IMG/VR virus record: IMGVR_UViG_2609459769_000016
DNA: 16,654 nt
Direction: 5' to 3' (one strand)
Source of the DNA: a virus
Taxonomy: Duplodnaviria; Heunggongvirae; Uroviricota; Caudoviricetes
Both the position numbers and the translations under genes were made by a program. Below are positions 2,962 to 11,788 of the stretch, one piece after another. Each line of letters opens with the position of its first letter. Position 1 is the stretch's first letter. A model generated the notes under the pieces. It did not search any database, was not told where the DNA came from, and saw only the letters and a program-made list of their open reading frames with translations.

Positions 2962-3269
2962 CTAAGAAAATTCCGATCTATTGTTAGGGTCATCAAAGTT
3001 ACTTAACAGTATTCCGAAATGAAAATACAAAGCAAGCTAATTGTCTTATTAAACATTATTATTGCATTTATATTATTTGAGCTTTTAGCTCAAAAATTTG
3101 GTTTGAGTACATTATTTTAAAGCAAGATAAACAATATCGGGCACTCTAGTTTTTATAATTAACAATTAAACGTCCATGAAATGTTATTTACTTTTCTTCG
3201 CTATTGTCATATCTTAATATAGTGGCTTACGCCACTCTACTTTCATCACATTTTGTACGTTTATGTACT

Positions 3270-3305
3270 CGCCATGAAGCTCTTTCATGGCGATTTTTTA
3301 TTCTT
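3270..3305 (+). terminator. Rho-independent terminator-like hairpin on the plus strand in the AT-rich island
   Basis: 9-bp perfect stem CGCCATGAA (3270-3278) and TTCATGGCG (3284-3292) with a 5-nt loop, followed by ATTTTTTATTCTT. Confidence 0.45.
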
Positions 3306-3385
3306 AATCCAAGAACATACTCCCTACCTATAGCAAAATCACTTTTTTAACAAAAGAATAACGTATTTAGGTAATCATTACGAAT

Positions 3386-3967
3386 TTACCCTATAGGTGC
3401 TACTGGCCATTCAATATCCGGTGCAGTTAATGTATCAACACGGTTCAGCAACACCAGATACTTTTTCCAGGCTTCCAGCAACAAGGTTTCTTCCTCCGTT
3501 GCGATTTCCAGATCTACAGCATCCTGAAGTGGCGCAATATGCTCACTGGCTACCTGCATCAGGCTGTTTTTTGTTTCTTCTGCCTCCCGGATCCGGAACA
3601 GTTTTTCTGCTTCCGTATCCTTCACCCAGGCTGTGCCGTTCCACTTCTGATATTCCCCTCCCGGCGACAACCAGGTAACATTTTCCGGTAACGGACCGAG
3701 TTCAGAAATAAATAACGCGTCGCCGGAAGCCACGTCATAAACCGTTTTACCCCGATGGTCTTCAACGAGATGCCACGATGCCTCATCACTGTTGAAAACA
3801 GCCACGAAGCCTGCCGGAATATCTGGTGGTGCAATATCGGTACTGTTTGCTGGCAGACCTGTATGAGGCGGAATATATGCGTCACCTTCACCAATAAATT
3901 CATTAGTTCCGGCCAGCAGATTATAAATTTTTATGGTCCGTGCTTGTTCACTCATTCTGAATGCCAT
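3386..3967 (-). CDS. tfa: tail fibre assembly protein Tfa, lambda-type
   Basis: 193-aa [57 protein letters not shown]... matches lambda Tfa almost throughout. Its ATG overlaps the stf stop (TAATG). Confidence 0.9.
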
Positions 3968-6900
3968 TATGCAAGCCTCACAATATAGTTAAATGCGATG
4001 TTTTTGACGGTGTTTTCCGCGTTACCCGCAGCGTTAACGGTGATGGTGTGTCCATGTGAGCCAATCGCAACGGAGTGCGTATGAGCACCAATACCGACAG
4101 TATGTGCATGTGCGCCTGCGATTGCAGCAGTGCCGGACAGCGAGTGGGTATGAGCACCATCTGATGATGTCTTCCCTGCATTACGAGTCTGGCCACTACC
4201 GCTTGTTGTGCTCATAATCCCCGCGCTTGGATTTGAAATCGCGGTATAACCATTAGGGAAAATGCTCGTGTTCGTGCCACCAAATGCACCGGAACTCTTG
4301 TGTTGGTGCGCGCCGGCACTATTTGCGGTCCCGCTAATACTATGGGTATGCGCCCCGGTGTTATTCGTGGATTTGGTTCCGTAATCAAACGACGATGTGG
4401 TTTTCGTCCCCAAATCCGTACTGGATGCGCTGGCGCTGTGGGTGTGCGATTTAATGCCGTCCTGTTCCTGAGACAATACGGCGCGACCACTGGCAGGTTT
4501 GCCCTTAATCGTCCAGCCACGCATATCAGGGATCACGCCTGACGGATAAGCGGCTGCAAGTTTCGGGTATGCAGATTTGTCAAAAGTCTGCCCCTGCATC
4601 AGGGCATAACCAGACGGAACGGTATCTGATGGCCACGGGATTGGTGCGCCGACTGGGTAGCTTTCTGGTGGAAGATTTTTCGAGGTATAAACTTCTGCCC
4701 AGTCTTCCTCAAAACCATAGCCATCTCTTGAGGAACGGTAGAACAGACCTCCATTTCTGTAATGTGCCTTCATCTGCAGGGTCCGGCAACTTCCGACTCC
4801 GGTATAGAAGTTAACCAGAATATAGCTGTCGCCAGAGCGGGTGACATTGTAAGCGCCTGATTCGGCATTCCATGGAACGCCCCCATCCGCATCGGCATAT
4901 GTATCCGTTGCCCTTCTGGCAAAAGCAGCCACATGCGCGGCGGTTAAAGTAATATCTTTGGAACCATCAAACTCAACACCAGAAACCAGTCTTGGCGTTT
5001 GCAGCTTTGTTGCTGTTAATGCATTACCATTCAGACTTGCGGACAGTTTGGTTCCAATAATCAGTTCGCCGGTTGCGTTATCAATAGCAAACGGTCTTAA
5101 TGTATTCCAGCCACCATAAACATCACCTTGATTGGTAAGCAGCAGGTAAGTTTTAGCGCCATCATTACGCCATAATGCACCATACTCCCCACCTATCATT
5201 CGAATCTGATTACCACCACGCGCTACAATTTCGTCTGTGGCAAAAAGTTTTTTGCACGACAAGTTATCGTTAACGATTAACGAATGAGACTCATAAAAAC
5301 CACGCCCACTCTTAAAATCAAGGATAACGTCCGCCGCGATACATTCAGTCGCCGGATTTGTTGCCCCAAACTTATAGGTCGTATCATTAACAACGAGATC
5401 AGCACCAGGTGCGGATATTGACAGGCCATCTTCGATAAACGCAAAAACAGGGAAAGCAGCGCCATCAACATAGAACACAGAGCGCAAATCATCGCCCTTA
5501 TTACTCATCATTATTGAGTGGATGGCTCGTTCATTGTTTTGATATTGCCAGAACATTCCATAAGCATAACGCCCCCTGTCAGTCCAGCCACCAGGCATAA
5601 CAAATCCGTTAAACTCGCAGTTATTCATCGGATCGCCTGCGGTTCGCGTTGCCGTGGTGATAATGACCCTTGATGCCAGTTCGCTTACTGAGCCAGCAGA
5701 ACGCATAACAACAACAGGGTAATATTTTCCAGATGTTGCACCTGCAGGAGCGTTAACCCGCACATAACGCATACCACGCTTATCAGCAAAGTCTGTTTTA
5801 CTGACCGCGTTAATGTTGTTCAGGAAGCGTCCCTTATCGGGTATATCAGCGCCGTTCTGGTCTTTCTGCAGACGTTTCTCTGCATTGTCATAGGCTGATT
5901 TTACTGCCTTTGGCGTTGCCGCCAGCGTTTCAGACGTACTGTTGGTCGCACTGCTGAGCTGTACTACCCCCTTTTTCGTCGTGCTCGCATCCTCAAGCGC
6001 CACGGCGGATGCAATATCCTCTGCCCGTTTTGCCGCTGTCTCGGCGCGCGTTGCCGCGGATTCCGCCGTACTTTTGCTCTGTGCTGCCGCTGCCGCACTG
6101 CCAGCTGCCTCTGTCGCCTTCGTGGATGCTGTCGTGGCGCTGCCCTTCGCTGCTGACGCCTGTCTGGTCGCCTCATCTTTTGAAGCAGACGCCGATGATG
6201 CCGATGACGCCGCCGAACTGGCTGACGATGCGGCAGCCGTTTTTGAGGATTCTGCGCTGGTTTCCGACGCTTTCGCGTTCGTTTCGGATGTCTTCGCTGC
6301 GGAAGCAGACCTCGCTGCTGCGCTGGCCTGTTCAGTGGCTTCGCCAGCCTTCGTTGTGGCTGTTGAAGCAGACGATGCGGCACTTTCTGCCGACTTTCCG
6401 GCAGCGGTGGCACTGGCTGAGGCCTGCCCGGCACTTGTTGACGCGGCGCTGGCAGACGACGCAGCCGCTGTTTTTGAGCCTGCCGCAGCTGAGGCACTCT
6501 GTCCCGCTGCCGTTTCAGAAGACTTAGCGTTCGTCTCGGACGTTTTGGCCGCCTTCGCAGAATTTGCTGTCGCCGTTGCCGAGGAAGCTGCGCTGCTGGC
6601 GCTCGAGGCTGCGCTCGTTTCTGATGATTTTGCCGCCTCTTTTGAAGCTGACGCATCCCGGGCTGAGGTGGCAGCTTCTGACGCTTTCGTGGTCGCGGTG
6701 GATGCAGAAGTGGCTGCTGATTGTTGTGACGCTGCCGCATTCGTTTCTGACGTTTTCGCCGCAGCGGCACTGGTGGCCGCCGCGCTTTTTGAGGACTCTG
6801 CAGCGGCAGCACTTTTTTCCGCTTCAGTGGCCTTTGTTGATGCCGTTCCTGCGCTGGAAGACGCTGACTGAGCCGACGACGCGGCCTGTCCGGCTGACGT

Positions 6901-7368
6901 GCTGGCTGCGCGTGCTGAGCCTGCAGCATCAGTCGCATGGGTTGCCGCCTCACGGGCTGATGTGCCGGCATCGCTGGCTGACTTCTTCGCGGCTGCCGTG
7001 TTCTGTGCCACCGCGGACGCGTTACGCGCCACCTCTTCCACCATCAGTTCAAAACGGCGCAGAGCCTCAGGACGGGCATCATCCTCTGTCATGGCACCGA
7101 GAAAATCATTCAGCGTACCGGGTTGAGAATCTTCATACACGGTAATGGTCCCGGCATGTGATGGCGGGAATCCCTCCACCAACAGACTGACGCTGTACTG
7201 ACCATACTCGACGTCCATTGTGTAACGCCCGGCTTCATCCGGGTTTTCTGAGGCCACTGTGTTCACCACCACCGTGGTGCTGTTGCGCCTGGCCTTTAGC
7301 TGAATGGTGCAGTTTTGTATCGGCTTACCTGCGCCATCTTTCAGTACACCTGAAATCCGTACTGCCAT
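3967..7368 (-). CDS. stf: side tail fibre protein Stf (lambda orf401/orf314-type, StfR-like, 1133 aa)
   Basis: N-terminus [49 protein letters not shown]... and C-terminus ...[63 protein letters not shown] match lambda Stf; the central part is a long Ala/Ser/Thr-rich repeat region. SD GGGGGGAA lies upstream of the ATG at 7366-7368. Confidence 0.9.
6020..7030 (-). repeat. Ala/Ser/Thr-rich low-complexity tandem-repeat coding tract inside stf
   Basis: Protein residues about 113-450 consist of reiterated units such as [11 protein letters not shown].. and [10 protein letters not shown]. The GCN-rich periodic DNA leaves long stop-free frames on both strands (track ORFs 5942-6871 +, 5964-6971 -, 6009-6527 +, 6564-7145 +). 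Confidence 0.7.
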
Positions 7369-7377
7369 ATTCCCCCC

Positions 7378-7406
7378 ACAAAAAAGCCCGCCTGAACCGG
7401 CGGGCT
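7378..7406 (-). terminator. Rho-independent terminator downstream of ybcW, directly upstream of the stf ribosome-binding site
   Basis: 8-bp perfect stem AGCCCGCC (7385-7392) and GGCGGGCT (7399-7406) with loop TGAACC. On the minus strand it is followed by UUUUUGU and then the stf SD and ATG. Confidence 0.5.
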
Positions 7407-7429
7407 GTCATAACACTGTGTTATGGTGA

Positions 7430-7636
7430 TCAGTCAACCACCAGGGAATAATCCTTCATATTATTATCGTGCTTCACCAACGCTGCCTCAATTGCTCTGA
7501 ATGCTTCCAGAGACACCTTATGTTCTATACATGCAATTACAACATCAGGGTAACTCATAGAAATGGTGCTATTAAGCATATTTTTTACACGAATCAGATC
7601 CACGGAGGGATCATCAGCAGATTGTTCTTTATTCAT
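7430..7636 (-). CDS. ybcW: YbcW-like small prophage protein (68 aa), function unknown
   Basis: Translation [68 protein letters not shown] matches DLP12 YbcW as recalled. Position and orientation fit the DLP12 gene order. Confidence 0.75.
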
Positions 7637-10279: not shown

Positions 10280-10705
10280 AAGCTGTGTGACGAAGTAACC
10301 ACTCTTAACAGCATAACCAATTTTTTACGTACGTAAACCACTAAATGATATTTGCGAGAATGCTACCGAGTATTGAAAACACCACTACAAATACATAAGC
10401 AAATCTCAACAAATAACCAACAAATAATTTCCAGCGTTATTTTTAGCTGGTTTAAATTGAATCTTCAAATTATAGAGCACTTATAAATAACAGCCATTAA
10501 TATAAATTGGCTAATAGATTTATTTTTATTCAGCCAAGAGCCATGAATAGGATTCGATAGAAAAAGTTCAGATAAAAATAGAGATCTACTTCACAAATCA
10601 AATGAGAAACCAAAACTTACATCTTGAAATAATCACATTGATTAGATGAATATTTATCGCGCAGTGACATCATTTTTTAATAATAGTTCAAAAAAAGGGC
10701 TCACG

Positions 10706-11788
10706 ATGAAAAAATTAACAGTGGCAATTTCTGCTGTAGCTGCATCAGTACTGATGGCGATGTCTGCTCAGGCAGCTGAAATTTATAATAAAGACAGTAA
10801 CAAGCTGGATCTGTACGGGAAAGTTAATGCTAAGCACTACTTCTCCTCTAATGATGCAGATGATGGTGATACTACTTATGCCCGTCTTGGCTTCAAAGGT
10901 GAAACCCAAATCAACGATCAACTGACTGGTTTCGGTCAGTGGGAATATGAATTCAAAGGCAACCGCGCTGAATCTCAAGGTTCCTCCAAAGATAAAACCC
11001 GTCTTGCCTTCGCTGGCCTGAAATTCGGTGACTACGGCTCCATCGATTATGGCCGTAACTACGGTGTAGCATACGATATTGGTGCATGGACCGACGTTCT
11101 GCCAGAATTCGGTGGCGATACCTGGACCCAAACAGATGTATTCATGACTGGTCGCACCACAGGTGTTGCAACTTATCGTAACAATGACTTCTTTGGTCTG
11201 GTTGATGGTCTGAACTTTGCTGCTCAGTATCAGGGTAAAAATGACCGCACTGACGTAACTGAAGCTAATGGTGATGGTTTCGGTTTCTCCACTACTTATG
11301 AGTATGAAGGATTCGGTGTAGGTGCAACCTATGCTAAATCTGACCGCACTAATAATCAGGTTATCTACGGTAACAACAGCCTGAATGCATCTGGTCAAAA
11401 TGCTGAAGTATGGGCAGCTGGTCTGAAATATGATGCGAACAACATCTATCTGGCTACCACCTATTCTGAAACCCAGAACATGACTGTTTTTGGTAATAAC
11501 CATATTGCCAACAAAGCACAAAACTTCGAAGTAGTTGCACAATATCAGTTCGACTTCGGTCTGCGTCCGTCCGTTGCTTACCTGCAATCTAAAGGAAAAG
11601 ACTTGGGTGCGTGGGGTGATCAGGACCTGGTTGAATATATTGATGTAGGTGCAACCTATTACTTCAACAAAAATATGTCCACTTTTGTTGATTACAAAAT
11701 CAACCTGATTGATAAGAGCGATTTCACGAAAGCATCTGGCGTTGCTACCGATGATATCGTTGCTGTAGGTATGGTTTACCAGTTCTAA
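10706..11788 (+). CDS. nmpC: outer-membrane general porin, NmpC/OmpC family, apparently intact
   Basis: [42 protein letters not shown]...VGMVYQF with signal peptide, porin beta-barrel repeats and terminal aromatic residue. It sits between quuD and essD as nmpC does in DLP12; the ATG at 10706 has an AAGGG SD. Confidence 0.9.

Follow-up and report, generated by a model that had tools for sequence, protein, structure and literature searches.

A small prophage gene related to yncL beside tfa in a deleted lambdoid prophage of Escherichia coli

The 33-codon gene and its relation to YncL

The window considered here is a stretch of 16,654 nucleotides of viral DNA (Duplodnaviria; Heunggongvirae; Uroviricota; Caudoviricetes; IMG/VR record IMGVR_UViG_2609459769_000016), which is a heavily deleted lambdoid prophage of Escherichia coli at the lambda attachment site; in relatives the prophage is bordered by bioA and ybhB on the left and by ybhC on the right. 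The element under study is a 424-bp block at positions 2962–3385, lying between the insertion sequence (IS) IS5 and the tail fibre assembly gene tfa, and it carries on the plus strand a 33-codon open reading frame (ORF) followed by a hairpin and an intrinsic terminator (Table 1).

An earlier note on this DNA, made from the letters alone, described the block as an AT-rich island and proposed it as a candidate small-protein or small RNA (sRNA) locus. The island has a GC content of 29% against about 50% in the flanks, and the IS5 transposase and tfa are both encoded on the minus strand, so that the plus-strand orientation claimed for the new elements, opposite to the flanking genes, holds. The ORF, said to run from ATG 3019 to TAA 3120, lies at these coordinates and encodes MKIQSKLIVLLNIIIAFILFELLAQKFGLSTLF, a peptide with one hydrophobic stretch at residues 7–23 (mean Kyte-Doolittle 2.94), in agreement with the single transmembrane helix predicted for it; the hairpin is present as described, and so is the terminator placed at 3270–3305, its stem starting at 3269 or 3270 and ending at 3293, with six U residues at 3294–3299. 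The caution that such features arise by chance in AT-rich DNA was justified, since shuffling the 424 bp produced a plus-strand ATG-initiated ORF of at least 33 codons in 31% of cases and one or more TATAAT in 56%, while a scan for terminator-like sites gave 2 against 0.7 expected by chance. Because the ORF and the TATAAT are at chance level in a single sequence, the question had to be settled by comparing genomes, and on the sequence evidence it is only in the comparison of homologous loci that the ORF and the hairpin-terminator block exceed chance.

In the allele survey the block was carried by 83 loci with 50 distinct alleles, and the ORF was readable in 78 of these loci. The alleles belong to three diverged lineages: the main type, a type linked to the sit genes with 90–94% identity, and a type with 78% identity (e.g. 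strain TUM12355, locus L006). Conservation of the 33-codon frame in homologous loci had been suggested as a check, and the frame and its stop are kept across the three lineages and the 50 distinct alleles. The 78% lineage reads MKIQSKLIILLNIIFALILFKLLAQKFGLYTLF, with all 33 codons and the stop retained; it differs from the main lineage at 18 of 102 nt, with 5 amino-acid changes, and the differences fall on codon positions 1, 2, and 3 in the ratio 7:1:10. The Nei-Gojobori method gave 11 synonymous and 7 nonsynonymous differences and a pN/pS of 0.16. When the same substitutions were placed at random, 36% of the placements created a stop and 0.01% gave five or fewer amino-acid changes with no stop (p about 1e-4). 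Within the main lineage five of the seven polymorphic ORF sites are synonymous, the 78 readable loci hold four protein variants, all of 33 amino acids, and in neither the main nor the 78% lineage is any of the five remaining reading frames open. From this comparison, in which most substitutions are synonymous, and from the homology described below, the 33-codon frame is read as a real, conserved protein-coding gene for a predicted single-pass membrane peptide, as the small-protein half of the original proposal had it.

The gene has been overlooked almost completely by gene prediction. In about 15 billion predicted proteins the exact peptide appears as a gene call just two times, both times unnamed; a search of all protein-cluster representatives returned only the peptide itself and one frameshift variant. 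With the peptide and YncL concatenated as the query, the matches were limited to variants of YncL plus three damaged forms of the peptide, of which two carry a frameshift and one is an N-terminal fusion. A full-text literature search with the peptide and RNA sequences gave no paper, and nothing relevant was found in the literature on prophage YncL or on sRNAs near tfa.

Among the NCBIfam models YncL (NF000537) was the sole match for the three variants of the peptide compared (E 1.3e-5 to 7.5e-5). By BLASTP against YncL of E. coli K-12 (MNVSSRTVVLINFFAAVGLFTLISMRFGWFI) residues 1–28 aligned with no gap from M1, with 11 of 28 positions identical (39%) and an E value of 2e-7, and ten columns are invariant across the four phage variants and YncL. 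The local alignment score with YncL was 60, whereas 20,000 shuffles of the peptide gave 20 ± 4 with a maximum of 45, which places the observed score about 10 standard deviations above the mean, so that the similarity exceeds shared hydrophobic composition; seven other small hydrophobic E. coli peptides scored 20–29. No match for the peptide was found in PHROGs or in Pfam; in the same copy of Pfam K-12 YncL itself was also without a match, and PF28073 (YncL) was seen only as a precomputed label on YncL proteins. On these alignments the peptide is a prophage-borne paralogue of YncL, the term paralogue being preferred to orthologue because the match is significant and yet lies below the equivalog threshold of the model; the same shortfall explains why the annotation pipeline PGAP never names the gene.

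Heat shock and minimal medium both induce the K-12 gene, and production of YncL reduces viability and causes membrane depolarization, which is sublethal at near-native levels, together with nucleoid condensation and sensitivity to pore-forming peptides, while no antitoxin is known for it; YohP likewise gives sublethal depolarization (PMC12542507). By analogy, insertion into the membrane and its depolarization would be expected of the prophage peptide.

Table 1. Coordinates of the features in and around the 424-bp block
Feature	Positions	Strand	Basis or remark
IS5, 1195 bp	1767–2961	minus	Right end directly adjoins the locus; repeats GGAAGGTGCGAATAAG (at 1767) and CTTGTTCGCACCTTCC (ending at 2961) at the termini
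CTAA, IS5 target site and first bases of the conserved block	2962–2965		Alignment with relatives
TATTGT, surviving -10 hexamer	2979–2984	plus	Promoter-like site, same place in two lineages
33-codon gene, YncL-family predicted single-pass membrane peptide	3019–3120	plus	Stop codon included
Variable part of the 3' untranslated region	3121–3220	plus	67% inter-lineage identity, indels; holds TATAAT 3154–3159
Hairpin 1, AGUGGC UUAC GCCACU	3221–3236	plus	Folding energy (dG) -8.9 kcal/mol, z -4.3
Linker CUACUUUCAUCACAUUUUGUACGUUUAUGUAC, candidate seed or Hfq-binding region	3237–3268	plus	Nearly invariant, mostly single-stranded
Intrinsic terminator	3269–3305	plus	Stem-loop 3269–3293, then U-tract; dG -15.2, z -5.5
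Spacer to the tfa stop codon	3306–3385		Poorly conserved, 67% inter-lineage identity
tfa, tail fibre assembly gene	3386–3967	minus	ORF and annotation of relatives; convergent with the small gene
stf	3967–7368	minus	Adjoins tfa

Promoter, IS5 insertion, and distribution of the block

The earlier note missed a conserved upstream promoter that is cut by the IS5 insertion. In relatives free of the IS a promoter-like site TTGACT-17-TATTGT lies 35 nt upstream of the ATG, and in the 78% lineage TTGACT-17-TATCGT stands at the same place (3093–3121 in L004, a relative free of the IS; 2995–3023 in L006 of the 78% lineage). In the window the -10 hexamer survives, and the position of the -35 hexamer (2956–2961) reads CCTTCC, which is IS5 sequence. 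At the insertion point the relatives that lack the IS read CATTGACT directly followed by CTAAG, while in the window the bases next to IS5 are ATAA (left) and CTAA (right), with no matching target duplication, and these mismatched flanks indicate that an adjacent deletion accompanied the insertion. A 43-bp remnant of an IS1 end (about 1724–1766) stands directly to the left of IS5; the deletion took away what else there was of IS1 as well as some 340 bp of conserved DNA upstream. With a query spanning the junction none of the matches listed from the 5426 complete E. coli genomes reaches to the left of 2962; the 2961/2962 junction therefore seems to be absent from these genomes. Since in the ORF and the 3' end the window has 100% identity with the commonest allele, the IS5 event is recent. 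Judged in this way, the small gene of the window is intact and its normal transcription is probably lost.

Several further features were noted in the DNA that is deleted from the window or lies beyond it. About 135 bp upstream of the promoter (L004 2946–3092) show 78% inter-lineage identity, and this stretch may hold a regulatory region, given that its identity is above the 67% of neutral-looking spacers. In this upstream stretch phage PhiR70_1 has an annotated ORF of 37 amino acids, which was rejected as a candidate because its ATG is lost in two lineages. Farther upstream, also within the deleted DNA, L004 carries at about 2601–2665 a sequence (TGGCGGAGAGAGGGGGATTTGAACCCCCGGTAGAG...) that resembles the 3' half of a transfer RNA on the minus strand, for which ARAGORN makes no call and which is possibly an old attachment-site remnant. 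The window itself holds at 774–1526 on the minus strand a gene for an AraC-family regulator, AT-rich prophage cargo whose closest NCBIfam models are YdeO and GadX, well below the cut-offs (147 versus 348 bits); in relatives free of the IS this gene and the small gene are about 1.1 kb apart, with unannotated DNA between them.

The 424-bp block was found in 830 of the 5426 complete E. coli genomes (about 15%), always on the chromosome and mostly with 98–100% identity, and among the matches listed in these searches no PGAP feature lay over it. It is also present in the sequenced phages mEp332 (PV340541), where the block is 99% identical, PhiR70_1, and ev099, in 48 IMG/VR contigs, and in 26 metagenome contigs; it was not found on plasmids, and the GTDB species representatives gave neither a match to the DNA pattern nor a relative confirmed by tblastn. 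With tblastn the peptide gave no match in phages and plasmids, and known carrier phages were missed as well, probably through the low-complexity filter. The right-hand neighbour is tfa in 79 of 80 loci. On the left the block is followed by a YdeO/GadX-like AraC regulator, by sitABCD, by a mosaic of fragments, or by IS1, and IS5 was met in the window only. With tfa constant on the right and the left side variable, the unit is one that moves together with the 3' end of tfa, towards which it is directed. In L006 the module is flanked on both sides by fragments of tfa (2737–2836 and 3441–3599), an arrangement that hints at co-movement with a piece of this gene.

The features by which a moron is recognized are found here: the promoter-like site and the terminator are conserved, the GC content departs from that of the surroundings, the tfa neighbour is fixed, and the left neighbour varies. 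From its sequence context the segment 2962–3305 can be considered a prophage moron, i.e., a cargo gene complete in itself that stands tail-to-tail with the late genes of the tail fibre.

Outside the block the prophage is a small remnant, as lom, J, and all head and tail genes of relatives such as L001 are missing. A ybcW-like gene (7430–7636) directly follows stf, forming with it the stretch 3967–7636. A porin gene at 10646–11788 on the plus strand, prophage-borne and annotated as ompC in relatives, lies between the lysis genes and a Q-like antiterminator, a placement like that of nmpC in DLP12. At 3426–3624 on the minus strand Rfam IS009 was matched with 225 bits against a gathering score of 117, wholly inside the tfa coding sequence, and this "gene" family would seem to correspond to the coding DNA of tfa.

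The conserved 3' end and the transcripts it may belong to

The most conserved part of the locus lies beyond the ORF. Between the main and the 78% lineages the identity is 0.78 in the upstream region, 0.81 from the promoter to the ATG, 0.80 in the ORF, and 0.67 from the stop codon to the first hairpin; it rises to 0.94 over the approximately 80 nt from the first hairpin to the end of the terminator and falls to 0.67 beyond. In the alignment of the 50 alleles variation touches 10 of 80 columns from hairpin to terminator, while in the two stretches on either side it touches 83 of 195 (Fisher p 7e-7). The changes seen in the 3' block are a C to U in the stem of hairpin 1, the sole stem change, which gives a G-U pair, two loop changes (one of them in hairpin 1), three variable columns in the linker, and changes in the U-tract, which is interrupted in two lineages (UUUCUUAUU). 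The five differences between the lineages are scattered, and a recent recombination tract is therefore an unlikely cause of the conservation. The terminator stands at the same place in L004 and L006, and as no U-run follows the hairpins on the minus strand the terminator signal belongs to the plus strand. The 3' block was never met apart from the ORF (827 versus 830 genomes).

This arrangement of a hairpin, an AU/U-rich single strand, and a terminator with six U residues is the layout of an Hfq module. At the gathering threshold Rfam gave no match in 2962–3385; relaxed searches returned only generic, sub-threshold Hfq-sRNA-like matches (VrrA with 23 bits, MicC with 22.8 bits, Aar, Hrs12, RseX, and Esr41), all far below the gathering score and with E values of 0.04 or worse on 191 nt, and no membership follows from them. 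Since a plain terminator needs no invariant single-stranded linker of about 32 nt, a function at the RNA level is likely.

Four other candidates in this part of the locus were tried and rejected. A long-range helix of the 3' untranslated region (3'UTR), seen in the fold of 3166–3302, was not reproduced in the other lineages; a DNA invertase crossover site near 3300, considered by analogy with hix and cix sites, showed no dyad symmetry; most substitutions in a minus-strand ORF of 24 amino acids (3214–3288) would change its amino acids, according to a hand translation of the variable columns; and a plus-strand ORF of 48 amino acids (3204–3350) is shifted in relatives by a 1-nt length change in a T-run.

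The simplest reading of the sequence is a single messenger RNA (mRNA) of about 310 nt, which would run from the upstream promoter to the terminator, and the 3' end is then most simply the 3'UTR of this mRNA, which may also be an Hfq-type sRNA module. It is possible, though on balance doubtful, that the 3' end is processed from the mRNA and acts as a 3'UTR-derived sRNA or sponge, which would make the transcript a dual-function coding and regulatory RNA. The 94% identity and the nearly invariant linker fit this proposal as well, and prophages offer a precedent in KilS, an sRNA from the 3'UTR of kilR of the Rac prophage that is reported to target yncL (PMC8175672); furthermore, where PMC12711010 cites Tree et al. 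2014, prophage Hfq-binding sRNAs are given as common in pathogenic E. coli. Against it, a target search with the linker, which covered the window, the fuller prophage of L004, the translation start region of the small gene itself, and the K-12 yncL mRNA, found none in these sequences, all duplex energies lying within the range of shuffles, and the interrupted U-tract of two lineages also speaks against it.

The existence of two genes, namely one for the small protein and a second for a separate sRNA of about 135 nt that would be made from the TATAAT at 3154–3159, end at about 3300, and act in trans through Hfq, is unlikely. The key -10 bases are kept in the diverged lineage (TATAAT versus TACAAT), the 3' end resembles an Hfq module and has a nearly invariant linker, and the sub-threshold Rfam matches (VrrA, MicC, RseX, and Hrs12 among them) are all to sRNAs of the Hfq type. 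However, a TATAAT is at chance level in such DNA (56% of shuffles), it has no acceptable -35 and is skipped by the promoter scan in either lineage, and the first 50 nt or so of the sRNA would fall in the least conserved stretch, of 67% identity and with indels; all the Rfam matches are far below the gathering score, and the 3' element never occurs apart from the ORF. Thus the TATAAT pointed out earlier is perfect and correctly placed, and a promoter role for it is not upheld; by the same evidence the sRNA half of the earlier proposal stands as far as the hairpin and terminator are real and belong to the most conserved part of the locus, while a separate sRNA starting at this hexamer is not favoured.

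A bolder proposal can be formulated, which is quite improbable and is offered as speculation: the locus would encode a dual-function prophage RNA that combines a YncL-like depolarizing peptide with an ultra-conserved 3' end released as an Hfq-binding sRNA or sponge, rewiring host regulation. If this were true, the peptide could, for example, make it harder for the DNA of superinfecting phages to enter the cell or bring lysogens into a tolerant low-energy state, and the constant association with tfa would be that of a phage-borne module for host control travelling with the tail-fibre cassette.

Interpretation and comparison with known systems

Taken together, the locus is with good probability a moron with its own promoter, an mRNA of about 310 nt, a YncL-family peptide, and a constrained 3'UTR, disrupted by IS5 in the window. 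In intact relatives a promoter of the sigma-70 type (TTGACT-17-TATTGT) would drive the mRNA and provide expression in the lysogen; this mRNA would consist of a short 5' untranslated region with no Shine-Dalgarno sequence, the 33-codon ORF, and a 3'UTR of 180 nt whose last 80 nt or so are the most constrained. The peptide would enter the inner membrane and, by analogy with YncL, lower the membrane potential, and the lysogen might thereby be brought into a stress-type state of low activity. The terminator would stop the transcript before it runs antisense into tfa, and during lytic growth late transcription through tfa would in turn run antisense across the small gene. The conserved 3' end probably adds a function at the RNA level, which may be Hfq binding, mRNA stability, or a 3'UTR-derived sRNA. 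In the window IS5 and the deletion replaced the -35 hexamer and everything upstream of it, and normal transcription is probably lost. What the sequences show in this picture is constraint on the coding frame, homology with YncL, the profile of conservation, linkage to tfa, and a disrupted promoter; the ends of the transcript, its translation in spite of the missing Shine-Dalgarno sequence, the action on the membrane, and a possible role of the RNA in trans are inferred.

Several observations weigh against this reading. The start codon is lost in one locus (L060, ATG to ATA), the proteins P0018 and P0022 are frameshifted near the AAAAA run at codons 25–27, and P0023 is an N-terminal fusion lacking the first six residues of the peptide; these damaged alleles may represent real decay or assembly errors. 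No Shine-Dalgarno sequence lies upstream of the ATG in any lineage, as had been remarked earlier for the window. With only three well-separated lineages the selection tests rest on few independent substitutions. The NF000537 scores of 25.0, 23.5, and 22.5 bits are under the 35-bit cut-off, while K-12 YncL scores 68.6. At the RNA level no compensatory base-pair change that would prove the structure was found in the three lineages, and the target search with the linker described above was negative.

A type I toxin-antitoxin system, in which a lethal membrane toxin peptide is checked by an antisense or divergent sRNA, is very improbable here. The peptide is small and hydrophobic, its relative YncL reduces viability and depolarizes the membrane (PMC12542507), and the main lineage shows a weak minus-strand sigma-70-like site (3210 to 3181, ATGACA-18-TAACAT, 9 of 12 matches) directed antisense towards the ORF. 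This site was not detected in the 78% lineage, in which a hairpin inside the ORF (3076–3094) that might serve as an antisense terminator is also broken, and there is no conserved minus-strand terminator. Moreover, seven type I toxins gave alignment scores of 20–29, i.e., background, against 60 for YncL; PADLOC gave no match; the 3' end does not fold back on the translation start region, 33% of shuffles pairing as well; and the depolarization by YncL is sublethal, with no known antitoxin (PMC12542507). As no conserved antisense partner was found, the toxin-antitoxin reading is unsupported, and of the earlier idea of a small membrane toxin there remains the membrane-depolarizing activity of the relative.

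That nothing here is functional, the ORF being a chance product of an AT-rich spacer and the terminator only shielding tfa from incoming transcription, is scarcely credible: such an ORF does arise in 31% of shuffles, it lacks a Shine-Dalgarno sequence, and it was called as an unnamed gene only twice in the protein predictions, but substitutions favour synonymous sites, the length and the stop are kept at 20% nucleotide divergence, YncL is matched specifically and with a score far beyond that of composition-matched shuffles, conservation extends to the upstream promoter, and a simple terminator needs no invariant linker.

About one in seven complete E. coli genomes, and sequenced temperate phages as well, carry here a conserved gene that none of the annotations listed contains, owing to its size of 33 codons and a score just below the cut-off of the YncL model. 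YncL gains a horizontally mobile paralogue, which suggests that phages carry depolarizing small membrane proteins as cargo; the highly conserved 3' end is a concrete candidate for a prophage-borne regulatory RNA, and the probable silencing of the gene by IS5 provides a small example of IS-driven decay of prophage cargo.

The closest known counterpart is YncL of E. coli K-12 (b4598, "stress response membrane protein YncL"). The peptides have 33 and 31 amino acids, respectively, each with one hydrophobic helix at residues 7–23, and share S5, L10, N12, A16, L19-F20, L22, and the (K/R)-F-G motif at 26–28. The genes differ in their setting, since K-12 yncL lies between patD and ortT while the prophage gene adjoins tfa; yncL has the Shine-Dalgarno sequence AAGGUGG and the prophage gene has none, and the long 3'UTR of the latter with its conserved end has no counterpart downstream of yncL. 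YohP and other small depolarizing membrane proteins are similar in being shorter than 50 amino acids with a single transmembrane helix, whereas YohP shows no sequence similarity to the peptide (score 25, i.e., background).

The type I toxins Hok, Ldr, TisB, Ibs, ShoB, ZorO, and DinQ share with the locus a small hydrophobic peptide, an unannotated AT-rich gap, and a structured RNA beside it; unlike them, the locus has no conserved antisense promoter, no sequence similarity to these toxins, and no pairing of the 5' and 3' ends by fold-back. SgrS/SgrT is a coding sRNA, and both it and KilS/kilR resemble the locus in having a short coding region followed by a conserved block of hairpin, single strand, and terminator of the Hfq-binding type, the difference being that here there is no Rfam family at threshold and no target in the sequences searched. 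Examples of morons in lambdoid phages are bor and lom of lambda. Although far smaller than known morons and overlooked by annotation, the small gene is like them a cargo gene with its own predicted promoter and terminator set among late genes, with a composition that differs from that of its neighbours; it stands at that end of the prophage, next to the tail-fibre genes, at which accessory genes accumulate.

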